DNA of 64,000 nt. Source: Acidimicrobiia bacterium. GTDB taxonomy: Bacteria > Actinomycetota > Acidimicrobiia > Spongiisociales > ZC4RG35. The notes beneath the pieces are model-generated. The model saw only the letters and a list, made by a program, of their open reading frames with translations. It had not been told where the DNA came from and made no database searches. The DNA lies in NCBI GenBank assembly GCA_965215185.1, contig OZ244034.1, forward strand, positions 1,056,001 through 1,120,000, given 5' to 3'. Positions within the stretch are counted from its first letter, which is position 1. Each line of letters starts with the position of its first letter. The translations under genes were made by a program, and so were the position numbers. Positions 30,951 to 55,727 of this stretch are shown here, in pieces.

Positions 30951-31549
30951 GGACGGGGAATGCTGCGAGGACCACGGCTGGCCCACCAAGCGGCCACCAC
31001 CGCACCCAGCAAATTGGCGATCAAATCCTGCATGTTGTTGGCATAGTCGCCCACTCTGGCTTCCGAGACAGCCAAGGTGGCCAGATACTCACCAATCTCA
31101 ATCAGGGCCCCCACCGCATTGGCGCCCAGGAAAGCCACCAACGCCGCCTTCTTGCCGCTGCTGGCTTTGAGCATCCAAGCAGTCGCCTCCCAAACGGCCA
31201 GCCCTGCAGTGCCCAGTCCCAAGAAATGCACTACGTGGTCATATCCGATTCCCCGCCAGGATTGCTCGTAGAGCAACAGGTCGTCGATTACCACGTTGCC
31301 TCCCACCAGGTGACCGAAGCCGGAGACCGACAGCAACACCAGCACGTGGGTGGAGAGACGGACCCGACCATCCACATACATCACTATGGCCCCAACAGAG
31401 AGCATCCACACCAGATAGGGAAAGGCCAGCTTGGAACCTGTGCTCAGACCGTAGACCGTCCATGCCGCCACATAGATGCCCGATACCACAACAATCCACG
31501 GATGCCGACCCACACTGGTGCCGATCCGCGTTCTGCTTGGATTCATCAA
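30947..31549 (-). CDS. Membrane protein (DUF2238/YjdF-like)
   Basis: H..GG, YDHVVHF, EIGEY and DL.ANLLG motifs. Confidence 0.65.
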   Translation of the reverse strand: MMNPSRTRIGTSVGRHPWIVVVSGIYVAAWTVYGLSTGSKLAFPYLVWMLSVGAIVMYVDGRVRLSTHVLVLLSVSGFGHLVGGNVVIDDLLLYEQSWRGIGYDHVVHFLGLGTAGLAVWEATAWMLKASSGKKAALVAFLGANAVGALIEIGEYLATLAVSEARVGDYANNMQDLIANLLGAVVAAWWASRGPRSIPRP

Positions 31550-31550
31550 G

Positions 31551-31623
<73 letters not shown>

Positions 31624-31669
31624 GGTGGTGGCGGGAAACTCGGCGCGAAACTGGATGGGTTTAGGGTTT

Positions 31670-31675
31670 ATGGTA
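31670..31675 (-). promoter_or_regulatory. Outward-facing -10 box (TACCAT) in the element left end, upstream of tRNA-Arg
   Basis: TTATGGTAGTTGG is conserved in all four left-end copies (about 31668, 37113, 37427, 52852). Confidence 0.5.
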
Positions 31676-31789
31676 GTTGGGGTGGGGAGTGGGGGGTTGG
31701 TTGTTGTGCGGGTGAGGTTTGAAGTGGTGGGGGTGCTGGTTTTGGGTGTGTGGGCCGTGGTGGTCTAGGGCGGGGTGTTTTTTGGGGTG

Positions 31790-33457
31790 TTAGGCGGCTT
31801 TTTCGAGGGGTCCGGCTCGGGCGTTGGGGAAGTGGTTGCCGTGCCAGCGGGTCATGTCTTTGCCGGTGCGTGCGTGGTGGGCGACTAGGGCAGTGTTGGT
31901 CTGGTACAGGCTGTAGGCGATCCAGTTGAGTTTCAGGCTGTTTTTGTCTTGGGTGCGGAGCCGGTCGTAGTCCAGTTGTCTTTTGTAGGTCGCGAAGTGC
32001 GATTCGATGTCTTGTCGGATTCCATACAAGGGTTCGAAGAGGGGATCTGTTTCGGGGATGGGTCGCAGGGCGCGGGTTCGGCGGGTGTGTCGTTTGGCTT
32101 GGCGTTCTTGGGGGGTGCTGTTGTTTCGGATCCAGGTGATGGCTCCGATCATGTGTGGTGGCGCGACGGGGTGGTCGGGGATTTCCCATTGGGTGTAGAC
32201 GATGTGTTTGCGGGTTCGTTTCCCGGGTTTTTTGATTTGGGTGCGGGTTCGTCGGAGGGGCTGGTAGTAGGGGTGTCCGGTTCCGTCGAAGACGAGGATG
32301 GTGGGGGTGCCGTTGAGCGCGACGATGTTTTCTTCGAACTCGCCGTGTGCGGTTTTGAAGGTGCCGGGTCCCAGGTTGACTGCTGCGGTTTTGCCTTGGC
32401 TGGTGCGGGGTGTTTTGCTTATTGGCAGGATGCCTTGGTCCATGAGACGGTCACAGTCGGCGGAGCGCATGGCCATGTCGTAGGTGACGGCGCGTATTCC
32501 TTGGGTGAGGTGGGGAAAGTCTTTGCACATTTGGATGATCTTTTTGGTGAACAGGTTGGAGTCGGACTGTCCGGGTTGGTCGAGGATTTCCGCGAATAGA
32601 GGGATGCGTTCCTGCCGGTGGGGTCCGCGTACCACGGCGGCTACAACACAGTAGCAGTAGCCTTTTTCTTCGCCGGGCATGGGACGAACGTCGGGGTCGC
32701 AGCGATGCTTGGGTTTGTGGCCGGGCTTGCCGGGTGGTGGGTTCTTGAAGGCGGCGAGTGTAAAGGTGCCGTCACCGGCGACTATCTGGGTGGGATCGGG
32801 ACGGCTGATGGAACCGGTGGTGGGGTCTAGCAGGTCTATGAATCGGGCGGCTTCCAGGGAGGCGCCGGTGGCTGCTTTTTGCAAACGGTTGATGACCCAC
32901 GGATTCATGTAGGTTGTTCGAAAATAGTACTCGTTGTCACGGGTGGGCGGCTCTTCGGACAGTCTCCGGTTGGGATGGTCGGGCCACGCTTGTTCGGCGA
33001 CTTTTCTGAGCATGTTCCATTTTTTCTGTTCGGTGGGGAACTTCCAGTTGCGGTTGATGGTGTTCAGGTTCCTGTTCGTTGACCGTAACGAGCCGTAGAT
33101 GAAAACCGCCACTTGGAACAGGAGCCATTCGGCAGCGGTGTGCTTGCGGGGCCTGCCGCTTTTCCGGCGGTCTCCGAACACGGCCCGGATAGCGTTTTCT
33201 ATCAGTTCGCTTAGTTCCCATAGAAGCGAGTTGGACACTAGGGATGACAGGTTCTCGTCGTCTCCCCACCCGAGACCCTCCCCTTTGACGTTCCGTTCGC
33301 TGTTGCTTCCCGGAGTGTCGGACCTTTTCAATACCAGAGGTGTGTCTTCCCGTTCCTGGTAGGTGGGGTCTTCCCAAACCAAGTCGACCTGGTCTGCTCG
33401 TATCGGGTCCAGGTTGTCGTTGAACACCCGGGGACGGGCACCCTTTTTCTTACCCAC
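31790..33457 (-). CDS. Large DDE transposase (IS4-superfamily-like, about 555 aa)
   Basis: IVAGDGTF (D), AVTYDMAM (D), YGIRQDIESHFATYK = Y-2-R-3-E-6-K; GTG start at 33457 after GGAGG overlaps the upstream stop. Confidence 0.8.
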   Translation of the reverse strand: MGKKKGARPRVFNDNLDPIRADQVDLVWEDPTYQEREDTPLVLKRSDTPGSNSERNVKGEGLGWGDDENLSSLVSNSLLWELSELIENAIRAVFGDRRKSGRPRKHTAAEWLLFQVAVFIYGSLRSTNRNLNTINRNWKFPTEQKKWNMLRKVAEQAWPDHPNRRLSEEPPTRDNEYYFRTTYMNPWVINRLQKAATGASLEAARFIDLLDPTTGSISRPDPTQIVAGDGTFTLAAFKNPPPGKPGHKPKHRCDPDVRPMPGEEKGYCYCVVAAVVRGPHRQERIPLFAEILDQPGQSDSNLFTKKIIQMCKDFPHLTQGIRAVTYDMAMRSADCDRLMDQGILPISKTPRTSQGKTAAVNLGPGTFKTAHGEFEENIVALNGTPTILVFDGTGHPYYQPLRRTRTQIKKPGKRTRKHIVYTQWEIPDHPVAPPHMIGAITWIRNNSTPQERQAKRHTRRTRALRPIPETDPLFEPLYGIRQDIESHFATYKRQLDYDRLRTQDKNSLKLNWIAYSLYQTNTALVAHHARTGKDMTRWHGNHFPNARAGPLEKAA

Positions 33458-34371
33458 TCTGCCCCTCCATGAACACTTCAAGTCGTGCTTGCCCAACCTG
33501 TTTCCAGTCGTATCCCAATGCTTTGATCACGCTGGTCAGCGAGTCGGAACCGAGGAACCGGGCAGCGGCCTCCAACCCAAGACAGTCAAGAATCTGTTTG
33601 GCGGTATGGAGGCGAACTGACCGGGCCGAAACCTCCGGCCGTTCCCCTCAGCCCGGCGTCGCTGATCACTTCGCCCAGCCGGACAGTCACCGCGTGTCCT
33701 CTCCGATCCGTCTCGATCTGCTCGCTCACTGCTAACAGCCTCTTCTCGTCAATCAGCGGACGGATCTGCAGGAACTGGCGGATCGTTTGCTGTCCCCACT
33801 CGCACAAGGGGTTCCGCCGCCCGCCGATCCAAACTCGCCTGTTCGGAAGGTCAAGATCGCTCTTGCGGACCTTGGCTATCTCTGAGGATGTGCCCCCGGC
33901 AAACGCCAACGCAACGATCGTCGCCCGCCGGGAGAACAACTGTCCCCGGTCCGCGAAACCCCTCACCCGTTTGGCTTCTTCCTCGGTCAACGGTCGGGTG
34001 GTCAACGAATCGTGGCAACGAGGGATGCGCTCCCCGGCTAGGCGACGTCCATCGGCCACCAGCCCCAATGTTTCGGCGGCTTCGAACACCGCCATCGCCG
34101 CCCACTGACGGTTACGGGCCGTGGACACCGAAGGCCGAGCATGCTCGCCGCCCGGTGTTTGCCGAGCAGCCCAACACCATGACAACACCACCTCCGACGT
34201 GACGTCCCCCCATCGTCTTATCCCCGCTGTGCGCAGATAACGAAAGAGTCTTTCCGCTTCGCCTGTTAGCTTCGCTGCGGTGCGGACATTGGCACGGTAC
34301 CTTTCTGCTACCAGATCAATGACTCTGGTAATAGCGGGTTCAATGAGCAGAAGTACAGGGGTCACGGTCAT
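33450..34371 (-). CDS. Tyrosine-recombinase-fold protein with a degenerate active site; one frameshift near 33645
   Basis: RPLTEEE, ALAFAGGTSSEIAKVRKSDLDL; after a shift in the G-run it continues VSARSVRLHTA...LEAAARFLGSDSL...LGYDW to TAA at 33450-33452. Confidence 0.7.
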
Positions 34372-34378
34372 TTCTGCC

Positions 34379-34672
34379 TTACAAGATCCCACAACGATTA
34401 CAAAAACCGTTTTTGGGAGGCCCGGTTGGCGATACCCACAAAAGGTGTTCTTTCACTCCCAATACCATATACGCGCGCGCGACGCTAAAAAGGGAACTGC
34501 GCGGCGGATCCTTTTCGGGGCTATGGGATCCTGCCAGCCCGGTGGGGCGCCATGGAACGACCTGCCGGCCCTTCTGCCGAGATGTTGGACACGTCGCCCC
34601 AGCACAACACCAATGTCGGCATTGCGGACAGATTCTCTTGCCGCGACGGAACCTGCTGCCGGGATCGGACAT
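34379..34672 (-). CDS. Possible small Cys-rich (Zn-binding) protein
   Basis: CPQCRHWCC....C and CNRC; stop lies 7 nt before the recombinase-fold ATG. Confidence 0.3.
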   Translation of the reverse strand: MSDPGSRFRRGKRICPQCRHWCCAGATCPTSRQKGRQVVPWRPTGLAGSHSPEKDPPRSSLFSVARAYMVLGVKEHLLWVSPTGPPKNGFCNRCGIL

Positions 34673-35339
34673 GGCAGCACTGCGCATCTACCAAAGTCCA
34701 CACCTGTAACAATGATTTCACTATCTGCCACTCCCGCCACATAGCCGGCTCGTTGTAACACCAACATGAACCGCAGCACTATCGCTCCAAATACGGTGTT
34801 TCATAACTGATCATCCCCCCCATCATAAAACCCCCCTGTGACACTCTTCGAAGAGAGAACACGATCTACAAGAGGATCACACAAAACTTATCGATCACCG
34901 CACCTGTCGACCAAAAGACACCAAACACCCCGCCAATCACTAAGCGACAGCACCCTGACAACACCCGAACCAAGACACCCCGACCATCGCCCCACGCCTT
35001 CCCCAACCAACATCTGACAGGCCCCCGGACAACCCCTTCCTGAAGGCACTGCGCCAAACCTCTGCTACTAATGTCGACCGACCCACCCCCCGGATTAGCC
35101 GCAGGGCTCTGTTTTGGGGGTCGCGTGTGGTTTCGTTGGGGAAATCATCCGGTAGTTGGGGTGTGAGGTCGTTGGGTTCGCTACCGGTGTGTCCGTTCCG
35201 AGCGGCTTTTCGGCGTTGCTGTCCGAGCGTACAGATAGAAACGAGGGTGCCTCACGGCGGCCTGTCGCTTGGATGGTGGCTGGAGCTTTCACGTCCAGTT
35301 CGCCCAACTGGGCGTAGACACCGGCAAAGGCGGAGAGTG

Positions 35340-35587
35340 GCGTTCGAACGAGCCGCTCACCCGCCTGGAAATGGCCGAGTGGCTGACCAGCATGTTCGAC
35401 CACATCAGCGCTGTCGCCGCCCCGCAGAGCCTGTTCTCTGACATCGACCCGGCTCCGGTCGGTCGTGGAGGGCCTCTACCAAACCGGGGTGACCCGCGGA
35501 TGCTCGGCCACGCCTTTGTTGTACTGCCCGGACGCTCCGGTCCCCCGGGCGCAAATGGCGTCGTTCATCATCAGGGCCATCCAATAA
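35340..35587 (+). pseudogene. S-layer homology (SLH) domain fragment
   Basis: PLTRLEMA...LFSDI, frameshift, then EGLYQTGVTRGC...YCPDAPVPRAQMASFIIRA. Confidence 0.7.
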
Positions 35588-35656
35588 CCACGCCGCCGCA
35601 ACGTTCAAGAAATCGTTCTCGGCCGATCCGGAAAAGACCGGTACGATTCCCCCTAT

Positions 35657-36778
35657 ATGAAACCTCTCGATGCTTTGTCGCTGGTTCCCACCGTGGAGGA
35701 CTCCAGGCGGGTAGCGGACGCCCTGCCCGGCAGCGTGGTCCTTTTCGGCAGCGTTGCCCGCGGTGACGCCGATCACGACTCCGACATCGATCTGCTGGTG
35801 ATTGTCGATCACGTAGACCGCGACAACCCTTGGGAACATCACCGCTTGTTATGCGACTTGGCAGAAAAGGCCGAGTCGGTAGACGCCCGCGCCGAGTTAG
35901 TGGTGGTGGACTGGCCCGAGTGGATGTCCCGCCGGCAGGTACCGGGACGGGTCGAGCATGCTGCCGACACCCAGGGAACGTGGCTTCGCAGGCACAGTCC
36001 CGGCTCGGAAGTAAAATGGGAAAAACTGATGAACCCGAGAGATGTCGCCACCGCTTCGGTCATAGCAGCGTTGCGTAACGCCACGGTGCGTTTAGAAGGC
36101 GCCGGTTCCTCTATGGTTCCCCACAGAAAGGAAATCAGGCTGGCCAGCGCAGGGGAAGAAAATCTGTATTGGTCGGCATGGCAAAGCAGGCTTGCGCGCA
36201 TCAACGGCGACCTGCACGATGGGTTGGAAGAACTGTTCCGAGCCTTGCGGTTGCTGACGGGGGTTTCTTACAACAAACGGGCCAAACACACCCTAGTGGG
36301 GCCCTTCGACGAGTTTCCCGGTCCGGTACAGGATGCCCTAAGCCAACACTTGACCGTAACGGACATGCAGTGGATTCAAATATGGCACTCGGCTTCTTTT
36401 TACGAAAAAGGCGCCCGGCTTAGCGTCTCCCCTGAGACCACCCGCCAGTTGGGGTATGTCGCCTCGGACGTGGCAGCGTACATTCATAACGTCACGGGTG
36501 TGGCGGCGGGTTTGGCTGTCTATTGCTCATCCACTATAAAAATCAGCCAGGCTGTTATAGCGCTGATACAGGAGGAAGCCTCTAACGGCGACGGCCCAGT
36601 AAAAGCAACCGCTGATCTGGAAACCGTGTTGAAGGACCTGTGGATCACCGTAGATTGGTTGAGGGAAGAACTGGACACCTCGCTGTGGCTGTACCCAGAC
36701 GGAACGCCCCCCAACGGTTGGACACAGCCCACACCCGCCGAGCTTCAAGGCAGACTCCCTCCGTGGAGCGGCCACTAG
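35657..36778 (+). CDS. Minimal nucleotidyltransferase (MNT) fused to a helical, possibly HEPN-like domain
   Basis: VLFGSVARGDADHDSDIDLLVIV; helical C-half containing KRAKHTL. Confidence 0.75.
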   Translation: MKPLDALSLVPTVEDSRRVADALPGSVVLFGSVARGDADHDSDIDLLVIVDHVDRDNPWEHHRLLCDLAEKAESVDARAELVVVDWPEWMSRRQVPGRVEHAADTQGTWLRRHSPGSEVKWEKLMNPRDVATASVIAALRNATVRLEGAGSSMVPHRKEIRLASAGEENLYWSAWQSRLARINGDLHDGLEELFRALRLLTGVSYNKRAKHTLVGPFDEFPGPVQDALSQHLTVTDMQWIQIWHSASFYEKGARLSVSPETTRQLGYVASDVAAYIHNVTGVAAGLAVYCSSTIKISQAVIALIQEEASNGDGPVKATADLETVLKDLWITVDWLREELDTSLWLYPDGTPPNGWTQPTPAELQGRLPPWSGH

Positions 36779-37065
36779 GAATAGCCATTGAGGGCGCAAC
36801 GCCTTGCGGGCGTTCTCGCTCCGCCGGGCGGAAAAACAGAGGCGGTCCCGATGTTTAGCGAGCCCGGTCGGCGGTTTCGTTGAGGGCATGCCCGAAGCGG
36901 TTCGCATATTCCGCTCTGCGTAGTTTGCGGGCAACCTGTCGGCAGGGGAGAGGATTAAGCCGCGCCAACCTTCACTCGGAGATTGTGAAGCTCTGGCAAC
37001 ACAGTGGGACGGGGCGGTTCGAAATGGCGCTCTAATGCCTCGCCGAGATTGTCAAGTGCCTCCCA

Positions 37066-37140
37066 GTCGGGGTTGGCGCGTTATGTGGCGCGAAACTGTT
37101 GCGGTTTCTATGTTTATGGTAGTTGGGAGGGGCAGTGAGG
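37066..37140. repeat. Extra internal left-end copy of the element
   Basis: GTCGGGGTTGGCGCG...TGGCGCGAAACTGTTG...TTATGGTAGTTGGG, closest to the copy at 52816. Confidence 0.7.
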
Positions 37141-37268
37141 GGTGGGGTGTTGCGCGTGGCAGGAACACATGGCGGAGATCGGTGTCACCGAGGCCATCCA
37201 AAGAGCACTACCCGCAGCTCGGTTCGGTAAACACACCGAGGATTAGGTGCAGTTGCCGGGCCGAGAAC

Positions 37269-37374
37269 GGTTTCGAAATCCGGTACAACCAGTTTCAGAA
37301 TTGGACGAAAGTGGTTTCACCGCTCTGTTCGCCCGATGCTGTGACCTGGGGTTGTGGGGTTTCGCGCCAGCGCC
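37269..37374. repeat. Element right end with about 22-bp periodic GTTTC repeats (copies at 39514-39619, 52706-52811, partial 49977-50009)
   Basis: GGTTTCRGAATTGGCYRRAAGT-type units, then GATGCTGTGACCTGGGG...GTTTCGCGCCAGCGCC. Confidence 0.85.
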
Positions 37375-37551
37375 ACAAGGGCGGTGGTGGCGCGAAACTC
37401 GGCGCGAAACTGGATGGGTTTAGGGTTTATGGTAGTTGGAGTGGGGAGTGGGGGGTGGGTTGTTGTGCGGGTGAGGTTTGGTGGGGGTGGGGGTGAGGGT
37501 TTTGGGCGTGTGGGCCGCGGTGGTCTAGGGCGGGGGTGTCTTTTGGGGGGT

Positions 37552-38414
37552 TTAGGCGGCTTTTTCGAGGGGTCCGGCTCGAGCGTTGGGGAAGTGGTTG
37601 CCGTGCCAGCGGGTCATGTCTTTGCCGGTGCGTGCGTGGTGGGCGACTAGGGCAGTGTTGGTCTGGTACAGGCAGTAGGCGATCCAGTTGAGTTTGAGGC
37701 TGGTTTTGTCTTGGGTGCGGAGCCGGTCGTAGTCCAGTTGTCTTTTGTAGGTCGCGAAGTGCGATTCGATGTCTTGTCGGATTCCATACAAGGATTCGAA
37801 GAGGGGATCTGTTTCTGGTACGGGTCGCAGGGCGCGGGTTCAGCGGGTGTGGCGTTTGGCTTGGCGTTCTTGGGGGGTGCTGTTGTTTCGGATCCAGGTG
37901 ATGGCTCCGATCATGTGCTGTGGCACCACGGGATGGTCGGGTATCTCCCATTGGGTGTACACGATGTGCTTGCGGGTCCGTTTCCCGGGTTTTTTGATTT
38001 GGGTGCGGGTTCGTCGGAGGGGCTGGTAGTAGGGGTGTCCGGTTCCGTCGAAGACGAGGATGGTGGGGGTGCCGTTGAGCGCGACGATGTTTTCTTCGAA
38101 CTCGCCGTGTGCGGTTTTGAAGGTGCCGGGTCCCAGGTTGACTGCTGCGGTTTTGCCTTGGCTGGTGCGGGGTGTTTTGCTTATTGGCAGGATGCCTTGG
38201 TCCATGAGGCGGTCACAGTCGGCGGAGCGCATGGCCATGTCGTAGGTGACGGCGCGTATTCCTTGGGTGAGGTGGGGAAAGTCTTGGCGCATTTGGATGA
38301 TCTTTTGGGTGAACAGGTTGGCGTCGGACTGTCCGGGTTCGTCGAGGATTTCCGCGAAAAGAGGGATGCGTTCCTGCCGGTGGGGTCCGCGTACCACGGC
38401 GGCTACCACACAGT
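37552..38414 (-). pseudogene. Truncated second copy of the DDE transposase
   Basis: Near-identical to the E1 C-terminal half; nonsense TGA at about 37840; 5' half replaced at 38415. Confidence 0.9.
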
Positions 38415-38610
38415 TGTTGGCGATCATCGAAATTCCCCACTTCCTGGGGCTAATACCCGTTGTTGGGTAGGGCTCTCTCCAAGCTGCTGATTGAAGCAAA
38501 GTCGGCAGCTGTGGAGAGGAGCCCTGGCCCTTATGTTGGCATTGGAGGAATACGTGGAAGTTCATGCTTTGAGAAGGCGGGGATGGTCGATATCGGCTAT
38601 AGTGGCATAG
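38415..38610 (+). mobile_element. IS21-family left end and istA N-terminal fragment
   Basis: TGTTGGCGATCATCGAAATTCCCCAC end; MLALEEYVEVHALRRRGWSISAI from 38533. Confidence 0.7.
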
Positions 38611-38961
38611 CCGGAGGGTCGGTTTCGTAAGAAACCCCGACCCCCGGGTGTTCGTAGTAGGCGCGCAGATGGTTGGCGTCAGTGAAAAGCATCGGGCGCG
38701 GTCATGGCCGGTGAGGCTCAGCTGAAGATCCAGGGGCGGGCTTGTTTGTTGGAGAGGATGTCGTCGTTTGGTGATTTTGGACTCGATCTTGATGGCGAAC
38801 GGCGCGTCGGCTGCGGGGTTATAGAGTTCCTTGAAGTGGTCGTGGATCACATCAAGGTGCTGTCTCAGTTGAACCATCTGGGCGTCGCTCATGAGTAGCT
38901 CGCCGCGTCGCACTAGGTTGGAGAGCGAGAGTACCTCGTGCCGGTATATACTGATCGCTTT

Positions 38962-39156
38962 ATGAGACCTGATCCAAACATCGCCTTGATCCTCTCAATC
39001 TTTTTGGGTGGACTGGGAATTGATCGCATGTACGTTGGCCAAATCGGGCTGGGTGTGCTGAAGCTCCTCACCGCTGGGGGGCTGGGCATCTGGTGGCTGG
39101 TCGATTTGTTCCTGATCCGCGGGATAGCCCGGAAAGCCCAGCAAGAAGGCACTTAG
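38962..39156 (+). CDS. TM2-domain small membrane protein (copy 1)
   Basis: ALILSIFLGGLGIDRMYVGQIGLGVLKLLTAGGLGIWWLVD. Confidence 0.88.
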   Translation: MRPDPNIALILSIFLGGLGIDRMYVGQIGLGVLKLLTAGGLGIWWLVDLFLIRGIARKAQQEGT

Positions 39157-39840
39157 CACCCTGAGCGAGGGTTAAGGTGCAGACCGTCCTTCCCTCGGGG
39201 GACATGTCAAGTGCCCGACCTCACCTAAAGGCCGTGGCTGTCCGGTAACCGCTATTCCCAAAGGCGGATAGCGAGGGAACCGAGAAGGTTTGTGGGGGAC
39301 TTTTCTGATCAGTTGTGGGGTAGTTGCTAACTGTCTAGGTTCCGTCATCGGTTCCTTCGCCGGTGGAGCCTGGTATTCGGAGTCTGATTACGGTGCATTA
39401 GTCGCTGCCCAGGCAGCCGGTTCCATCAGTTTCGATAACGAACTCAGGGCCGAACTGTCCGGCGCAACGATCCCCGACCGCAAGTGGATGAATCTCAAAA
39501 CGGGACCGGTAGCGGTTTCGGAATTGGCCAGAAGTGGTTTCAGAATTTGCTGAAAGTGGTTTCACCGGCCTGTTCGCGCGATGCTGTGACCTGGGGCGTT
39601 GTGGTTTCGCGCCAGCGCCGACCCAACAGGGCCTCTCACACGATCACAGAATACGTGTCCGCCAAACCGGGGGAACTCCATTACCACTCCACCCTTTCAA
39701 ATAGGCGGTTCAACCGCAAGCTCCTTCTTTGCAGCCCAACCCTACGGTAGTTGATCCTTTCGGGGTGGTTCCGGTGCGTTGGTGGTGTGATGTGAGTGCG
39801 GTGGTCAATTACTGAGGTTCCCCTAAGTCTCTACCAAACC

Positions 39841-39971
39841 CACTCATACTGATAGGGGTCCCTTGGCCGGGGCGGGTCTGACCCATACCAAACCTGGCTT
39901 TTGCCTTTGCCCGATCTGTCGGCCTGTTTCCGGCTGAGGGATTGTTCACCGACCCGTGGGCGGATGTGACC
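39841..39971 (+). ncRNA. IS110 left end A, truncated bridge-RNA-like leader (target-binding loop only)
   Basis: Inverted homologue of 42800-42933; cut at 39972 by an IS3-type IR. Confidence 0.65.
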
Positions 39972-40025
39972 TGAACCGTGCCGATGCTCCTAGGATGCTC
40001 CTATTTTTGTCAAATCGAGAGCATC

Positions 40026-41252
40026 CTAGATATTCGCAGGGTTTTGTTGGGTGAGCCATTGTTGGTATTGGGTGGCGAGGTGGTGGTTGTGGTATAGGCC
40101 TCGTTCGAGTTGGGAGATGCGGTTGGGGTGGGTTTGGAGGGCGGTGGCGGCGTGGGTGAGGGTGGTCTGTGTGTGGTGGCGTTGGGTGCGTAGGAGGGCG
40201 CCGTTGGGTGTTGGTGGTGGGTTGGTGAGCAGGTGGTAGATCTCTCGGGCGATGTGGCGTTTTAGGCAGCGGATGATCTCCCGGCGGGTTTTGCTCTCGG
40301 TTTGGCGGCGGTGGGTGTATTCGATGGTGGGTTGATGGCAGCGCATCCGGGTGGTGGCGATACGCCATAAGGCGTTGTTGGCTTGGCGGTCGCCGCCTCT
40401 GTTGAGCCGGTGGCGTATGGTCTGCCCGGAGGAGGCCTGGACGGGACTGGCGCCGCATAATGCTGCGAAAGACGCTTCGGTGGTCAGGCGTTTGGGGTTG
40501 TCTCCTGCTGTGACCAGCAAAGCGGCGGCCGTGTCAGGACCGACACCCGGGGCGGAGAGCAGCGCCGGGTTGGCTCGGGAACAAAGACGAGTGATCTCTT
40601 TGTCGAGTTCTTTGATCTCGGTGGTGAGCGCCTGGCAGCGGCGCGCCAGATAGCGCAGTGTTTTCTTGGCGACCGTGGTGGTGGTATCGGCTGTGCCGGG
40701 ACGAAACCCGGCACAGGCTCGGATCCGGGCTTTGGTCGACAGTCCCCGGAGTTGGTGTTTGACCTGCTCGGGAGCGGTGACCACTAGGGCGTGGAGTTGG
40801 TTGATGGCCTGGGTGCGGGCTTTGATTGCGGAACGGCGGACTACCCGCAACATCCTGATTCCCTCGACCAGTCCGTCGGCGGTTTTGGGTCGGGCGGTGG
40901 CTTCACCGTTGAGAGCGGCCCGCCCGGCGGCTTGGGCGTCGGTGGTGTCGGTTTTTCCCAGTCGGCGGCGCAGCTGACGGTTGGGACGGTTGACTTCTAC
41001 CACCTCGATACCGATCCCGGTGAGATAGCGGGTCAGGCCGGCGCCGTAGCTGCCGGTGCCTTCCACCCCAACCCGCACCACACGACCCTGGGATCTCAAC
41101 CAGCCGCCCAGTTCCTCAAAGCCGGTTGCATCGGCCGGGAACGGAGCGGTTCCCAGGACTCGACCGGCGGTGTCCACTGCCGCCGCGACATGACAATCGC
41201 GATGGGTGTCCACCCCGCCAAACACCTCGACCAGGCTCTCTTTTTGTGACAT
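40026..41252 (-). CDS. IS110 family recombinase with a C-terminal HTH extension
   Basis: GGVDTH, GVEGTGSYG, KTDTTDA (DEDD); SSG...RHRLNRGGDRQAN. Confidence 0.95.
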   Translation of the reverse strand: MSQKESLVEVFGGVDTHRDCHVAAAVDTAGRVLGTAPFPADATGFEELGGWLRSQGRVVRVGVEGTGSYGAGLTRYLTGIGIEVVEVNRPNRQLRRRLGKTDTTDAQAAGRAALNGEATARPKTADGLVEGIRMLRVVRRSAIKARTQAINQLHALVVTAPEQVKHQLRGLSTKARIRACAGFRPGTADTTTTVAKKTLRYLARRCQALTTEIKELDKEITRLCSRANPALLSAPGVGPDTAAALLVTAGDNPKRLTTEASFAALCGASPVQASSGQTIRHRLNRGGDRQANNALWRIATTRMRCHQPTIEYTHRRQTESKTRREIIRCLKRHIAREIYHLLTNPPPTPNGALLRTQRHHTQTTLTHAATALQTHPNRISQLERGLYHNHHLATQYQQWLTQQNPANI

Positions 41253-41484
41253 GAATGTCTTCTTCTTCCTTGGATAGACTCGCGGGTATCACCGGACCGG
41301 AAGCGGTGGACAGAACACTCATGATGGTGTGGAGAAGCAAGGCTCCTATAAGGTCACATCCGCTCCCGGGTCGGGGAGTGTCCCCAGGCCGAAAGCAGGC
41401 CGACAGATCATAGATAAGGCACAAACGGCCAGTTTGTCAAGGGGTCAGACCCGCCCCGACCAAGGGACCCCACCATTATGAGTG
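41253..41484 (-). ncRNA. IS110 C leader, putative bridge RNA
   Basis: Target-loop segments TTGACAAAC and TCTATG; donor-loop segments ATAGGAGC and ATGAGTG. Confidence 0.7.
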
Positions 41485-41488
41485 TTTG

Positions 41489-42703
41489 TCAAATCGAGTT
41501 TTGTGTGGTGATCCATTGTTGGTATCGGGTGGCGAGTTGATGGTTGTGGTATTGGCCTCGCTCGAGTTGTGATAGGCGTATTGGGTAGGTGTGGAGGGCC
41601 TCGGCGGCGTGAGCGAGGGTTGTTCGCGTGTTTTTGCGTAGACAGCGCAGATGGGCGCCGTCGGGTGTGTCCGGTGGGTTGGTGAGCAGCCTGTGGATCT
41701 CTCGGGCGATGTGACGTTTGAGGCAGCGGATGATCTCGCGACGGTTTTTGCCTTCTGTTTGTCTTTTTTGGACATAGGCGATGGTTGGCTGGTGGCGGCG
41801 CATGCGGGTGGTGGCGATCCGCCACAGGGCCTGGTTGGCCTGGCGGTTCCCGCCGCGGTTGAGACGGTGCCGGACGGTACGTCCCGAGGACGCTTGGACA
41901 GGGCTTACGCCGCACAGAGCAGCGAAAGAGGATTCTGAGTGCATGCGTTCGGGGTTGTCGCCTGCTGCGACCAATAACACCGCGGCGGTGTCGGCGCCGA
42001 TCCCGGGGGCGGCCAACAGTGCCGGGTTGACCTGGGCGCAGAGATGGTTGATCTGGGTGGTGAGTTCTCCGATCTCTGCGGTGAGGGTCTGGTATCGGCG
42101 GGCCAGGGAACGCAACGCCGCTTTGGCGTATCTGATGGTGGTGTCGGCTGTGCCTGGGCGGAAACCGGCGCAGGTCTTTACGCGGGCTTTGGGAGAAAGT
42201 CCTCCAAGTTGGTGTCTGACCTGGTCGGGAGCGGTAACAATCAGGGCGTGCAGCTGGTTGATGGCCTGGGTTCGGGCTTTGGTCGCCGAACGGCGGGCCA
42301 CCGTGAGCATCCGTATTGCTTCTACTGGACCGTTACCGCTTTTGGGCACTGCGGTGGCCTGTCCGCTGAGAACCGCCCGAGCCGCGGCTTGGGCATCGGC
42401 GGTGTCAGTCTTGCCCAACCGGCGGCGCAACTGACGGTTTGCACGGTTCACTTCCACCGCCTCCATGCCGATACTGGTGAGGTGGCGGGCCAGACCGGCG
42501 CCGTAGCTGCCGGTGCCCTCCACCCCGACTCGGACCACCCTGCCGTGGGACTGTAGCCAATCGCCCAGTTGCTCATAACCGGCCGTGTCGACCGCGAAAG
42601 GGGCTGTTCCCAGGACTCGACCGGTGCTGTCCACCACCGCTGCCACATGAACATCCCGATGGGTGTCCACCCCACCAAACACATCTACCTGACCTACTGA
42701 CAT
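41489..42703 (-). CDS. IS110 family recombinase with a C-terminal HTH extension
   Basis: Same motifs as 40026..41252; a diverged paralogue. Confidence 0.95.
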   Translation of the reverse strand: MSVGQVDVFGGVDTHRDVHVAAVVDSTGRVLGTAPFAVDTAGYEQLGDWLQSHGRVVRVGVEGTGSYGAGLARHLTSIGMEAVEVNRANRQLRRRLGKTDTADAQAAARAVLSGQATAVPKSGNGPVEAIRMLTVARRSATKARTQAINQLHALIVTAPDQVRHQLGGLSPKARVKTCAGFRPGTADTTIRYAKAALRSLARRYQTLTAEIGELTTQINHLCAQVNPALLAAPGIGADTAAVLLVAAGDNPERMHSESSFAALCGVSPVQASSGRTVRHRLNRGGNRQANQALWRIATTRMRRHQPTIAYVQKRQTEGKNRREIIRCLKRHIAREIHRLLTNPPDTPDGAHLRCLRKNTRTTLAHAAEALHTYPIRLSQLERGQYHNHQLATRYQQWITTQNSI

Positions 42704-42933
42704 GATTCCTCCTACTCGGAATATAATTCGGGCTGTTCACCAGACCCGCTGGCGGATGGACAACACACTCATGGTGGTGGAGAAGCAAGGCTCCTATCAG
42801 GTCACATCCGCCCACGGGTCGGTGAACAATCCCCCAGCCGGAAAACAGGTCGACAGATCGGCACCAAGGCACAAAACCAGGTTTCATAAGGGTCAGACCC
42901 GCCCCGGCCAAGGGACCCCTATCAGTATGAGTG
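42704..42933 (-). ncRNA. IS110 B leader, putative bridge RNA
   Basis: Target-loop segments TATGAAACC and GTGCCG; donor-loop segments ATAGGAGC and ATGAGTG. Confidence 0.72.
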
Positions 42934-43150
42934 GGTTTCATAGAGGGTTGGTTGTTTGTGTAATTGGGGGTTTGATCGGGTTGGTTTGATGGTAGTTGGT
43001 TTCGTGTTCGGCGGGGGTGGTGTAGGTGGTATCTGGGGTGATTCCGCGAGGGTGGCGAAGGTGGTGTGGTCAAGGTCTCGCCAGGGTCCCCGGTTGCGGA
43101 TCAGTTCAGTTTTGTATAGACCGATGGTGGTCTCTGCCAGGGCATTGTCA
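42934..43150 (-). mobile_element. IS3-family (IS6110-like) 3' remnant whose IR is split by IS110 B
   Basis: DNALAETTIGLYKTELIRNRGPW; other half of the IR at 39972-39982. Confidence 0.75.
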
Positions 43151-52015: not shown

Positions 52016-52906
52016 TCGGCCCGGTCCACGATCAAACCGGGTGTCCACCGGCAATACCCGAGTCCACGGTTGGGTGTCCACGGTTCGGTTCTTGTGATCA
52101 TTTTCGCTCCGGTATGCGCCCGCTGGTCACGGTTTGAACGTGACCCATACACCTAAACCTTGTTTCCCGGTGTTGATCCCCGGATGTTGCGGGCCTGTAG
52201 AGGCGGTGACTAGATGGTTGGAGACCCGAGGCGTATTTGATGGGAGCCTACCCGCATCCCCATAAAACCTTCGCTTGTTACGCCCCTGTCCGCTATTCGA
52301 CCGGGATCCAAGACATTGGTCTACGCTTAGGTACCCACTGTGAAAAACGACATGGCCACCACCAGCACTGATGATCTTTGGCGGCTGGCATGGTCCGCCG
52401 CTCCCGCTGGTGCCTTAACGACTTCGCCGTTCAGTGCTTCCGACTTGATCTGGTCAAGGAGCGACTTACCCAACGTGGTCTCCAGTGGGTAGGCAATCAC
52501 CTAGCGAAACCGCGTTAACGGACACAACCATCGATGCATTGGCAGGACGAGCGGCCCCAGTGGAATGCGACCCAGCCGAACCCGCTATGTAGGACATCCT
52601 TCAATCTTAAGAGGACGACCGCTGCAAGGGAGGTAACTACAAGAGCGGCTTGGAGGTGCGTGACCGAGAATTCCACGGGGCGCAACTTTGAGGACATGCG
52701 GCAGCCGTTTCAGGAATAGCCAAAACTGGTTTCGGAATTGGCTGAAAGTGATTTCAGCGTCCTGTTTGCGGGATGCTGTGACCTGGGGTGTTTTGGTTTC
52801 GCGCCAGCGCCCAAGGGCGGGGTTGGCGCGAAACTGTTGGGGTTTCTGTGCTTATGGTAGTTGGGGCGGAGAGTGGGGTGAACCGCGCCGGGTTTGGTAG
52901 AGGGTT

Positions 52907-54177
52907 TGGTGGTACCCGACTTTGGTGGAGTCGGGTTATTTGAATTGGTGGTGTGACTGACCCGGAAGGAGTCTTCATGCCTTATCGATATCCACCCGAG
53001 TTCCGTCGCAGGGTGCTGGATCTGCTGGCAGTTGGCAGGTCGGTAGCGTCGTTGTCAGCGGATCTTGGGGTGTCTGATCAGACGATCTACAACTGGCGGC
53101 GCCAAGACCGAATCGACCGCGGTCTACAACCGGGTGCCACTTCGGAGGAACAGGCCGAACTGTGGGCCGCTCGCTGTCGGATCGTCGAGCTGGAAACCGA
53201 ACTGGCCGTGACCAAGCGGGCTATTGAACTGCTGGGAGACCAGGTGGTGCACCTCAAAGACGCTACCAGGCGATCCGGACCATGAGAACCGAAGGGCTTC
53301 CCAGGTGGCGTGTCGAGTGCTCGAGGTGTCACAGTCCGGGTTCTACGCCAGGGTGGTCCCGGCCGCCGTCAGCCCGCTTGCATCCGCCACGCCTGGTTGA
53401 CCGACGTCATCTGTCACATCCATGAACAGTCACGCGGCACCTATGGGGCGCGGCGGGTGCACGCCGAACTGCGGTTGGGTCATGGAATAACCGTCGGACA
53501 CAACGCAGTAGCGATGCTGATGCGCAGAGCCGGTCTAGCTGGTCTTAGTAGGTGACCGAAGTCCCAGACGGCGGACCCGCCCGGTGGACACGCCCGGTGG
53601 ACCTGGTCGACCGTAACTTCGCCCGTTTCGAACCGGACCAACTGTGGGTGACCGATATCACAGAGCATCCCACCCGGCAAGCGCAAGGTGTACTGCGCGG
53701 TGGTGCTGGACGTGTACGGGCCGCCGGGTCGTCGGCTGGTCGATCGACAACACGGCCACCTCCGGACTGGTCACCTCCGCGTTAGGTATGGCAATCGGGA
53801 ACCGCCAACCCGACCCCGGCACGGTCATACATTCGGACCAGGGCACCCAATTCACCTCCTGGGCGTTCACCCAACGGGCCCTCGAATCCGGTCTGGTTCC
53901 GTCCATGGGAACCGTCGGGGACTGTTTCGATAACGCCACCATGGAATCGTTTTGGGCTCGTATGCAGGTCGAGCTGTTGGACCGCAGGAGGTGGAGGACC
54001 CGTATCGAACTCGCCAACGCTATCTTCGAGTACCTAGAGATCTTCCACAACCGCCACCGGCGCCACACCGCACTGGAAATGCGCACCCCCATCGAATACG
54101 AAAGAAACCACAACAACAACCTAACCATCGCACCACTGATCCAAGTGAGCTGACTCCACAAAACCGGGGGACCATCA
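52907..54177 (+). mobile_element. IS3 family element (1271 bp, frameshifted orfA/orfB) enclosed by a second IS3-type IR pair (52879-52906, 54178-54201)
   Basis: IRs TGGTGGTACCCGACTTTGGTGGAGTC and GACTCCACAAAACCGGGGGACCATCA; orfA MPYRYPPEFRR; WVTDIT, HSDQG and DNATMES. Confidence 0.9.
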
Positions 54178-54342
54178 CTCTATGAATCCCGGTACGGTTC
54201 AGGGGGTTGGTTGTGGCGCGGGTGGGGTTTATGTGAGGTTTTGAGGGGCTGGATCTAGGGGTTTTGGAGTGTGGGCCGCGGTGATCCAGGGCTTTTGGGT
54301 GTTTGGCCCGCGGTGATCTGGGGCGGGGTGGTTTTGGGGTGT

Positions 54343-54815
54343 TCAGGCGACTTGTTCGAGGGGTCCGGCTCTGGTGTCGGGGAAGTGGCTGCCGAACCAG
54401 CGGCTGATGTCTTTCCCGGTTCGTTTATGGTGGGCGACTAGGGCGGTGTTGATTTGGAATAGGTTGTAGTTGAGTTGTCGCTTGTAGGTACTGAAGTGCG
54501 ATTCGATGTCTTGCCGGGGTCCGTACAGCGGTTTGAAGGAGGGGTCTGTTTCGGGTATGGGCCGCAAACCGCGGGTTCGGCGGGTGTGGCGTTTGGCTTG
54601 GCGTTCTTGGGGGGTGCTGTTGTTACGGATCCTGGTAGTGGCTCCGACCATGTGCGGTGGGACGAGAGGTTTGTCGGGTATTTGCCATAGGGTGTAGACG
54701 ATGCTTTTCGGGTTCGGGGTCCGGGTTTTTTGATTTGGGTACGGACCCGGCGAAGGGGCTGGTAGTGGGGGTGGCCGTCTCCGTCCCTAACGGCGATGGT
54801 GGGGGTGCCGTTGAG
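54343..54815 (-). pseudogene. Third copy of the DDE transposase, C-terminal remnant
   Basis: LNGTPTI...YQPLRRVRTQ; YGPRQDIESHFSTYKRQL; RAGPLEQVA; frameshift and deletion. Confidence 0.88.
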
Positions 54816-55211
54816 GAGTGCTGTTGTGACGTATGAGGGTGGTGGCACCAACGAGGTCAGTGGGGACGAGTGGTTTGTCGGGGATAGCCCAGGTGCCGTA
54901 CATCATGTTGCGATGGAGCACAACCGAAGCGAAGTTGAAAAACCATCTACATCAAGACCGGACCGAACGGCCAACAACTTGCTCCGGTGGAGGGCTGTCT
55001 GGTAACTGCCATAACCGGAAACAACCCCGGCCGTGGGGGGGGTCAGGAACCAAGCTGACCGAAGTCCGGTCCCAGTGAGTTGGCTGCCGTACCGCGGCAA
55101 GGACTGCGACCTTCGAATGCTGCCCGCGCATAGACCATACCAGTTCGGCGGAGGGTAGGGGTGGTCATCGGACGCTCACTCCAGGGATGATTGGTGTATA
55201 CTGATCGCTTT

Positions 55212-55406
55212 ATGAGACCTGATCCAAACATCGCCTTGATCCTCTCAATCTTTTTGGGTGGACTGGGTATTGATCGCATGTACGTTGGCCAAATCGGACT
55301 GGGTGTACTGAAGCTCCTCACCGCTGGGGGGCTGGGCATCTGGTGGCTGGTCGATTTGTTCCTGATCCGCGGGATAGCCCGGAAAGCCCAGCAAGAAGGC
55401 ACTTAG
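55212..55406 (+). CDS. TM2-domain small membrane protein (copy 2)
   Basis: Protein identical to 38962..39156; differences within the CDS are synonymous. Confidence 0.88.
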   Translation: MRPDPNIALILSIFLGGLGIDRMYVGQIGLGVLKLLTAGGLGIWWLVDLFLIRGIARKAQQEGT

Positions 55407-55727
55407 CCCCCTGAGCAAGGTTTAAGGTGCAGACCGTCCTTCCCTCGGGGGAGATGTCAATGCCCGACCTCGCCTAAGGGGCGTGGCTGTCCGGTAACCG
55501 CTATTTCCAAAGGCGGATAGCAGGGAAAATCGGGAAGGTTTGTGGGGGACTTTTCTGAACCAGTTGTGGGGTATGTTGGTAACTGTCCAGGTTCCGTCAT
55601 CGGTGGAGTCCGACTCCTGTGCATTAGTCGTTGCCCAGGCAGCCAGGTCCAACGGGTTCGATAACGAACTTAGGGCCGCATTGTCCGGCGCAGCGATCCC
55701 CTCGACATGGGTGGAGATCCGGCTCAG

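Follow-up and report, generated by a model that had tools for sequence, protein, structure and literature searches.

The window, a stretch of 64,000 nucleotides from contig OZ244034.1 of an Acidimicrobiia bacterium, contains an intact transfer RNA (tRNA) gene, tRNA-Arg(CCT), the first nucleotide of which is directly abutted by a cargo-bearing transposon of 5,751 bp (31624-37374 of the window). This transposon encodes a transposase of the DDE type and a second protein with the fold of tyrosine recombinases and a degenerate active site, referred to as the partner in the following. An earlier note on this DNA had proposed that the partner recognises the tRNA gene or the ends of the element and directs the DDE enzyme, both together forming a minimal two-component system for targeted transposition. 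The transposon turned out to be larger than the two-gene span (31790-34371) to which the note referred. On the minus strand the order is tRNA-Arg(CCT), a spacer of 166 nucleotides, an open reading frame (ORF) of 555 amino acids and an integrase-like ORF that extends up to 34371. The following features make up the element and its target:

31550..31623, minus strand: tRNA-Arg(CCT), intact, target of the element (ARAGORN; Rfam tRNA, 71.1 bits).
31616..31623: first copy of the target-site duplication, ACAAGGGC on the plus strand, equal to tRNA nucleotides 1-8 (GCCCTTGT); exact 8-bp repeat of 37375-37382.
31624..31789, minus strand: right end (RE), the 166-nucleotide spacer, abutting tRNA position +1; terminal inverted repeat at 31624-31641.
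31790..33457, minus strand: Tn5-like DDE transposase, 555 amino acids, intact.
33450..34371, minus strand: catalytically degenerate protein of the tyrosine recombinase fold (partner), 306 amino acids when read through.
34372..37261, no strand assigned: interior of the element with its cargo; one recognisable gene, encoding a nucleotidyltransferase-domain protein (35657-36778, plus strand).
37262..37374, minus strand: left end (LE); its terminal 18 nucleotides (37357-37374) match the inverted RE tip at 15 of 18 positions.
37375..37382: second copy of the target-site duplication, ACAAGGGC, exact repeat of the first copy.

The tip of the RE (31624-31641) recurs as a direct repeat at 37383-37400 and, inverted and with three mismatches, at 37357-37374. 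With up to three mismatches allowed, the window contains four matches to this tip, compared to an expectation of 0.2, and none of 100 shuffled sequences reached four. A search for terminal inverted repeats in the vicinity of the two genes yielded no convincing candidate, the true LE being located 2.9 kb further out. The window element exhibits terminal inverted repeats as well as a target-site duplication, the two features by which DDE transposons are structurally defined. As the exact 8-bp direct repeat has the sequence of the first eight nucleotides of tRNA-Arg(CCT), insertion regenerates the tRNA gene. The site specificity for the tRNA gene that the earlier note had assumed is borne out by this duplication and by the RE abutting position +1. 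Both ends are asymmetric and contain multiple repeats: the RE has two subterminal GAAAC sites (31635 and 31647, 12 nucleotides apart), whereas the LE has four, read as GTTTC (37270, 37292, 37314 and 37359), three of them with a period of 22 nucleotides. The background frequency of this repeat is 0.2 per 135 nucleotides.

In the transposase the residues D229, D327 and E485, as well as R481 and K492, which form an R-x3-E-x6-K signature with the glutamate, are invariant in 24 sequences sharing 28-82% identity with the window protein. The AlphaFold2 (AF2) model of the enzyme reached a predicted local distance difference test score (pLDDT) of 84.8. Its best fold match in the PDB was the Tn5 transposase (1muh; E 1.5e-6), at a low TM-score of 0.31-0.37, followed by piggyBac, while TnsB (7pik) ranked only 16th (E 0.069). 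The protein hence combines the D-D-E triad, the Y/x-R-E-K signature and the RNase H fold with a beta-rich insertion domain, which are characteristic for transposases of the IS4/Tn5 type. The window transposase scored 21.4 bits with the Pfam family DDE_Tnp_1, just below the cut-off of 23, and matched none of the insertion sequence (IS) families of NCBIfam; IS1182 came up at E 0.026 in three of 14 family members. A search of PDB sequences with the transposase profile was also without a match. The enzyme is Tn5-like, yet seems to fit none of the curated IS families, as far as these are represented in Pfam and NCBIfam.

The integrase-like architecture that the earlier note had assigned to the upstream gene was found by profile and fold searches, after Pfam, NCBIfam and single-sequence PDB searches with the partner had returned sub-threshold hints. 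The AF2 model of a close homologue, P0007 (pLDDT 89.6), matched XerA, Tn1549 Int, lambda Int, Cre and XerH in Foldseek with a probability of 1.00 over about 300 columns spanning both domains, and the family profile matched XerA (5hxy) in the PDB with an E value of 1e-4. The partner thus has the N-terminal core-binding (CB) domain and the C-terminal catalytic (CAT) domain of the tyrosine recombinase fold. The motifs AGGTSSEIA, RSVRLHTA and FLGSDSL, in which the note had recognised a degenerate active site, are all present in the window partner. In a hidden Markov model alignment to XerA, on which the mapping of the catalytic residues rests, the partner shows Arg I replaced by T, the beta-hairpin Lys by A, His II by R and His/Trp III by S, with R kept at Arg II. 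For 49 homologues and for 44 wider members of the family (22-56% identity) the catalytic positions were found to be occupied as follows:

Arg I: retained in 0 of 49 homologues (T in 41, S in 5, N in 2, I in 1) and in 2 of 44 wider members.
Lys (beta-hairpin): 0 of 49 homologues; 0 of 44 wider members.
His II: 0 of 49 homologues (R in 48, S in 1); 0 of 44 wider members.
Arg II: 48 of 49 homologues; 28 of 44 wider members.
His/Trp III: 0 of 49 homologues; 0 of 44 wider members.
Tyr column: Y in 25, H in 19 and a gap in 5 of 49 homologues; Y in 10 of 44 wider members.

The full residue set R-K-H-R-H/W-Y of active tyrosine recombinases is absent from the partner family, and the alignment across homologues that the note had suggested as a check likewise shows the R-H-R-H-Y set not to be retained. 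Judged by its sequences, the family constitutes a branch of the tyrosine recombinases that is conserved and catalytically dead. A library of 1.84 billion proteins contains 1,079 of its representatives at E <= 0.001, of which 601 reach E <= 1e-10. A protein search returned 80 proteins at E <= 0.001, including the product of the window itself, of which the full-length ones comprise 290-346 amino acids; the sole name given to any of them by its source is "hypothetical protein" (one member). Four proteins (P0023, P0107, P0122 and P0178) contain a part of the partner joined to a long further stretch, P0023 matching both the partner and the transposase; these could be deletion derivatives, read-through calls or true fusions.

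In the assembly, the partner gene is broken by a frameshift. The integrase-like frame (33586-34371/34392) is interrupted by a TGA at 33586-33588, and the coding sequence goes on in the +1 frame until a TAA at 33450-33452. When read through with an X at the break, the protein comprises 306 amino acids and can be aligned without gaps to its homologue P0004 at 81% identity. In the 12 homologues of which the sequences were read, a single frame runs across the break (GLRGT[AP]GVSARSVRL), from which it follows that GCCGGAGGTTTCG in the window contains one surplus G, at 33632/33633. Logan contigs from four public runs of two studies were placed over 31450-35000, and letter 33632 was left out in all contigs covering it, with depths of 9.32/9.32 (X1), 7.4/7.4 (X2), 7.43/7.43 (X4) and 21.2/21.2 (X5), although rare variants are dropped from such contigs. 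One X4 contig, covering 33596-34035, has two other differences in addition to the gap at 33632. The single frameshift stated in the earlier note is therefore present in the assembly as one extra G, but missing from the contigs derived from public reads; it is either an assembly error or a private variant. As the extra G is missing from every covering public contig, the partner gene is probably intact in nature.

The open frame of the transposase extends from 31790 to 33496 on the minus strand, with a conserved GTG start codon at 33455-33457 that is preceded by a GGAGG six nucleotides upstream. The TAA of the partner and this GTG overlap within eight nucleotides (...ATGGAGGGGCAGAGTGGGTAAG...; the overlap itself being GTGGGTAA), just as the note had described for the frameshift-corrected gene. 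An overlap of partner stop and transposase start was found in 19 of 19 pairs examined, 16 of which share the same 8-nucleotide form RTGnnnTRR. Together with the strict linkage of the two genes, this conserved overlap suggests translational coupling.

This linkage is seen in all 21 partner-encoding loci on related genome contigs, where the gene next downstream, on the same strand, encodes a homologue of the transposase. Across 401 sampled genomes of the phylum, the same arrangement was found in 14 of the 15 partner loci with the strongest matches (13 of 14 if the unpublished genome G298 is set aside), the exception having two tandem partner genes with the transposase after the second one. The gene-neighbourhood comparison proposed in the earlier note hence shows the two genes to be strictly linked. 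The broad profile A4 also matches ordinary recombinase genes in most genomes (E 1e-14 to 1e-28), and none of 15 loci with ordinary XerC/D-like hits has a transposase immediately downstream. The transposase profile matched 25 of the 401 genomes, with all near-full-length matches belonging to partner-bearing genomes, one of them truncated at the end of its contig. When ORFs of 100 or more amino acids in the flanks of the 21 related loci were clustered, one further conserved gene emerged, which encodes a small Cro/C1-type helix-turn-helix (HTH) protein of about 105 amino acids and is located divergently upstream of the partner in 20 of these loci. Searches by tblastn with homologues of this HTH family gave no match in the window and none in distant subfamilies, where a non-homologous analogue may take its place. 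No AAA+ ATPase was found among the ORFs of the window element or among the conserved neighbours of the 21 related loci, and the conserved neighbours of the gene pair likewise did not include TniQ, TnsC or TnsA. The absence of a TnsC-like ATPase, as stated in the note, thus applies to the window element and to the conserved neighbourhood. The term two-component is partly right: the two genes are strictly linked, but most relatives also carry the small HTH gene, and the element as a whole is a cargo-bearing transposon of 5.75 kb.

The geometry seen in the window recurs in relatives. In 15 of the 21 related loci a tRNA-Arg(CCT) gene follows the transposase on the same strand at a distance of 150-250 nucleotides, and in 15 related loci the C-rich tip of the element abuts tRNA position +1. 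The inverted repeat combined with the 8-bp repeat is exact in the window and in loci L017 and L024, matches at seven of eight positions in L029 and is also found in L079. In four loci (L011, L013, L019 and L022) the RE is followed by GCCCT(C/T)GT and an LE, which identifies them as the outer elements of tandem arrays; the ends that meet in L013 belong to different subtypes. The two subterminal direct repeats co-vary between genomes (CGCGCC, CGCACC, CGCGCA and TTTTCTGCC). Among 13 distant loci from other classes or families, 12 abut a tRNA gene in the same manner, namely Arg(CCT) in five cases, Phe(GAA) in three, Lys(TTT) in two and Ala(TGC) in two. For the tRNA-Lys element in L080, the candidate LE is preceded by an exact GGGCCTCT, which corresponds to nucleotides 1-8 of tRNA-Lys. 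Within the flanking DNA examined, no LE with duplication was found for the Phe-targeting elements and for L077, L081 and L087. In L027, two tRNA-Arg(CCT) genes (8658-8731 and 9579-9652) are located 920 nucleotides apart downstream of one element, and the target gene seems to have been duplicated there.

Insertion of the element has occurred repeatedly at a single nucleotide position of particular tRNA genes and in one orientation, and relatives within the Actinomycetota keep the same geometry at tRNA-Arg, -Lys, -Ala or -Phe genes. As re-insertion takes place with the upstream flank already being the end of another element, the recognition determinants must lie in the tRNA gene itself. In trees of the transposase (a quick tree from which rows below 350 amino acids, L015, L028 and L083, were left out) and of the partner, the Phe and Ala elements each form a single clade, while Lys elements appear in two places and Arg elements in several. 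It follows that targets were switched more than once, and elements with different targets were found even within one host family (f35). The partner family is present in three of 201 sampled genomes of the order. All ten genomes of the same genus (loci L032-L040 among them) keep the end motif at position +1 of tRNA-Arg(CCT), with the transposase being complete, broken, a remnant or undetected within 1.5 kb. As the motif persists even where the transposase is gone, it might now be kept as upstream control region of the tRNA gene. Three genomes of other families have a tRNA-Arg(CCT) gene with unrelated upstream DNA, without the end motif and without the transposase.

The linkage of the two genes, the overlap of stop and start codon, the TnsF precedent discussed below, the predicted complex and the divergence of the partners make it likely that the dead recombinase selects the target. 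Overall, the best explanation appears to be a site-specific cut-and-paste transposon in which the dead recombinase serves as the subunit reading the tRNA gene, to which a probability of roughly 0.55 is assigned. According to this model, the partner would bind DNA, recognise the body of the tRNA gene downstream of the insertion point and dock the transpososome in one orientation, so that strand transfer would be staggered across tRNA nucleotides 1-8. An AAA+ adaptor would not be involved. The overlapping stop and start codons would keep partner and transposase co-expressed, the RE would subsequently supply a transcription signal for the tRNA, and the divergent Cro/C1-type HTH protein would probably regulate the operon in most relatives from the Acidimicrobiia. 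A more far-reaching version can be put forward tentatively, as it is somewhat less probable than its simpler form: the dead recombinase alone might read the tRNA gene and directly recruit the Tn5-like transposase without any AAA+ adaptor, as a two-protein, orientation-specific system for a single site that would have been re-aimed several times (Arg, Lys, Ala, Phe), with the RE acting as the transcription signal of a single-copy tRNA and the host thus depending on the element.

The complex prediction, another check suggested in the earlier note, gave the partner and the transposase ipSAE values of 0.46, 0.48 and 0.34 in three runs compared to 0.00 for the best control, which was graded as weak support, since passes at or below 0.60 are more often wrong than right. 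Of 80 solved complexes, 58 passed the ipSAE mark, as did two of 110 mismatches, with values at or below 0.60 in seven of those 80 and in both passing mismatches. At least 97% of the contacts agreed between the runs, and the pLDDT of the partner was at least 82. In a comparison of the 23 of 33 loci with a known target and sufficiently long proteins, partners of elements with the same target were more similar than those of elements with different targets, both for transposases of 40-50% identity (49.2%, n = 8, vs. 38.5%, n = 10) and for transposases of at least 60% identity (64.6%, n = 7, vs. 41.5%, n = 8); this signal is confounded by clade and the pairs are not independent.

Besides these limits of the complex scores and of the divergence signal, several points weigh against the partner as target selector. 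An Arg-Lys pair (transposase 65.1%, partner 49.7% identity) resembles an Arg-Arg pair (62.0% and 50.5%). The GAAAC repeats in both ends could be the binding sites of the partner instead, and the poorly conserved N-terminal 100 residues of the transposase could carry the target recognition. Site-specific recombination would also leave an 8-bp flanking repeat. Binding of the partner to DNA, to the tRNA gene or to the transposase is hypothetical. A simple consensus scan found no sigma-70-type promoter in the RE, and a terminator scan was empty as well; the conserved TACCAT/TACCCT is a candidate -10 element if the actinobacterial consensus assumed here is taken as a basis. The window copy may be defective, as its partner gene is frameshifted in the assembly and no HTH gene is present. 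Finally, with the end motif being present in all ten genomes of the same genus, part of its recurrence results from vertical inheritance.

The idea of GAAAC sites as binding sites of the partner leads to a different division of labour within a tRNA-specific DDE transposon, in which the partner would be an architectural subunit that bends or pairs the asymmetric ends, while the transposase itself reads the target. The arrays of one short repeat in both ends (four in the LE, two in the RE) exceed the background, the subterminal repeats co-vary between elements, and the Arg-Lys pair lacks any extra divergence of the partner relative to the Arg-Arg pair, all of which would be expected in this case. 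It would also fit with tyrosine recombinases being C-clamp DNA binders and benders, which is established knowledge and is also taken up in the discussion of TnsF by Faure et al. (2023; PMC10293859). Transposases of the Tn5 type, to which the best fold match (1muh) belongs, bind their own ends, however, and the partners diverge on average more between elements with different targets. In addition, strict orientation at a gene-specific site is a hallmark of a dedicated selector, as in Tn7. An end-binding role of the partner instead of target selection is thus considered unlikely, even if it is the strongest of the alternatives.

That the partner is dispensable for insertion and targeting, either as a regulator or inhibitor of transposition or as decaying relic of a former resolution system, is improbable. 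The catalytic inactivity of the protein, the frameshift in the assembled window copy and the presence of a separate regulator-like HTH gene in relatives could be understood this way, but the partner is of full length and keeps its motifs even in members of 22-30% identity, within a family of 601 representatives at E <= 1e-10, its stop codon overlaps the transposase start in 19 of 19 pairs, a near-full-length transposase without partner was not seen in the 401 genomes, and the frameshift is missing from public contigs. Even less credit is given to two further explanations. In one of them, inverted repeat, 8 bp and inverted repeat would constitute an attP-like site which recombines with the tRNA 5' end via the shared 8-bp core, catalysed by a recombinase with an unconventional active site and with the DDE protein as auxiliary. 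The junctions of the tandem arrays (LE inverted repeat, 8 bp, RE inverted repeat) do resemble the core site of a recombinase, the identical flanking 8-mers would be compatible with a crossover region, and 48 of 49 homologues keep Arg II, with Tyr or His in the nucleophile column. Yet none of the 49 homologues has Arg I, Lys, His II or His/Trp III, 19 of them carry His and five a gap at the position of the Tyr, and the DDE triad stays invariant at about 30% identity. Moreover, the 8-bp repeat follows the tRNA sequence of each host, as is expected of a duplication. These findings render recombination very improbable. The other explanation regards the gene pair as a domesticated, immobile and vertically inherited fixture upstream of the tRNA gene that is kept because its end drives tRNA expression. 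It would account for the end motif in ten of ten genomes of the genus, even with the transposase gone or reduced to a remnant, but hardly for the terminal inverted repeats and 8-bp duplications, the different end subtypes within tandem arrays, the patchy distribution (three of the 201 genomes sampled from the order, and sites without the element in three further families), the four different tRNA targets and the co-existence of elements with different targets in family f35. It can be regarded as highly unlikely as well.

Apart from the element itself, the window contains two older copies and further mobile DNA:

37383..39619, minus strand: copy 2, older, truncated and displaced by the newer insertion; RE, transposase fragment, region of a TM2-domain gene, LE-like repeat.
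52699..55701, minus strand: copy 3, decayed; LE-like repeat at 52699-52811, then CAAGGGC, then RE tip at 52819-52836.

The RE of copy 2 begins directly after the second 8-bp repeat, and 37372-38414 is 95.8% identical to 31613-32652 (blastn). Its transposase fragment encodes the C-terminal residues 283-555, and its LE-like repeat is located at 39507-39619. Copy 3 includes a C-terminal transposase fragment (54293-54815), followed by a region repeated from copy 2 (55193-55701). Its RE is interrupted by an IS3-family element (52953-54153) consisting of orfA (52953-53285, HTH_Tnp_1) and an orfB remnant (53644-54153, rve core) that is apparently split over frames. A small TM2-domain gene (38938-39156 on the plus strand, and 55191-55406) lies in a stretch of about 530 nucleotides which is repeated at 97% identity and sits behind both truncated copies; it could be cargo of an older variant of the element or of a derivative that is not autonomous. 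A 73-nucleotide inverted repeat with 92% complementarity (arms 39829-39901 and 42873-42945, span 39829-42945) bounds two IS110-family transposase genes in tandem (40026-41252 and 41489-42703, minus strand; 78% identical over 300 nucleotides). In the rest of the genome no further transposase copy was found. A second, broken copy of the partner (G000:C1:1316250-1316808, loci L002-L004; 61-63% identity, three frames) is present there, with no transposase homologue alongside and no tRNA gene in the 3.3 kb read. The cargo gene of the window element (35657-36778, plus strand) is oriented opposite to the gene pair and encodes a nucleotidyltransferase-domain protein of 373 amino acids, which was matched by Pfam NTP_transf_2 (E 3.8e-9) and by the PADLOC candidate PDC-S09 (E 5.2e-10). 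The match to known families is limited to the N-terminal nucleotidyltransferase motif and does not include the other approximately 300 residues.

The precedent cited in the earlier note, TnsF as a target selector built from an inactive recombinase, is real. TnsF of Tn6022-like Tn7 elements is a non-catalytic protein derived from tyrosine recombinases and carried by a DDE transposon, and for Tn6022 it was shown to select a single chromosomal gene, comM, as target (Faure et al., 2023; PMC10293859). In the sections of that paper dealing with TnsF, it is described as a protein of about 500 amino acids that combines zinc fingers at the N-terminus with CB1-CB2 domains in tandem and a partial CAT domain and acts through TniQ, TnsC and TnsAB. 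Both TnsF, as described there, and the partner are dead tyrosine recombinase proteins of DDE transposons, and the gene of each overlaps that of its own partner. The protein found here, however, comprises about 300 amino acids with one CB domain, a complete CAT domain and no zinc-finger region, is paired directly with a Tn5-like transposase without TniQ, TnsC or TnsA among the conserved neighbours, and is associated with the first eight nucleotides of a tRNA gene instead of comM. Set against this description, an assignment of the partner to the TnsF type was rejected by domain architecture and gene partners. An assignment of the element to the Tn7-like transposons (TnsB, TnsC, TniQ/TnsD) was rejected as well, with TnsB ranking only 16th in the fold search and no conserved ATPase or TniQ-like neighbour being present. 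In its behaviour the system resembles targeted transposons of the Tn7/TnsF kind, yet it belongs to neither by its components. The Tsy elements covered by the same paper, consisting of an active tyrosine recombinase, an HTH protein and a TnsF homologue, are similar in that a protein of the tyrosine recombinase type and a small HTH gene occur in a gene-specific mobile element, but, as far as they are described there, they move by the active recombinase and without a DDE enzyme. tRNA targets are mentioned in this paper for CRISPR-associated Tn7-like elements (CASTs). A description of a DDE transposase acting with an inactive tyrosine recombinase at tRNA genes, or of a bacterial DDE element inserting at tRNA position +1, was not found in a literature search to which ISfinder/TnPedia and subscription journals and, for the former, the TnsF survey tables of PMC10293859 did not belong.

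With Tn7, when guided by TnsD to attTn7, and with the CASTs the element shares the orientation-specific insertion beside an essential, conserved gene that is not inactivated. Tn7 also has asymmetric ends with multiple repeats. It inserts downstream of its recognition site, though, and needs the heteromeric TnsAB and the AAA+ protein TnsC, whereas the element described here inserts at the 5' boundary of the tRNA gene with no ATPase having been detected. Tn5/IS50 and the IS4 superfamily provide the best fold match, the D-D-E triad with R-x3-E-x6-K and terminal inverted repeats. Tn5 produces a duplication of 9 bp, compared to 8 bp here, selects its targets with hardly any specificity, works without a partner protein and has simple ends of 19 bp. 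Some IS91-family elements carry an integrase-like ORF. Among eukaryotes, Ty3, the TRE elements of Dictyostelium and the Dada DNA transposons target tRNA genes, Ty3 doing so through transcription factors. These elements likewise use tRNA genes as safe, conserved landing sites, but their enzymes and hosts are unrelated. The family described here uses an essential gene as a safe site from its 5' side, where the 8-bp duplication rebuilds the gene and the end of the element replaces the upstream region.

To our knowledge, the targeting of DDE transposition has until now been associated with the multi-protein machinery of Tn7, consisting of TnsA/B, TnsC and a selector. The Tn5-type enzyme, the simplest and best-understood transposase, is found here in a strict partnership with one small protein of a DNA-binding fold and inserts at one nucleotide position of a tRNA gene. 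Should the partner indeed be the selector, this would be the smallest known protein-guided insertion system, with the natural Arg, Lys, Ala and Phe variants being a ready-made test of how specificity is encoded, and dead tyrosine recombinases would have been recruited independently for a second time to choose a target.

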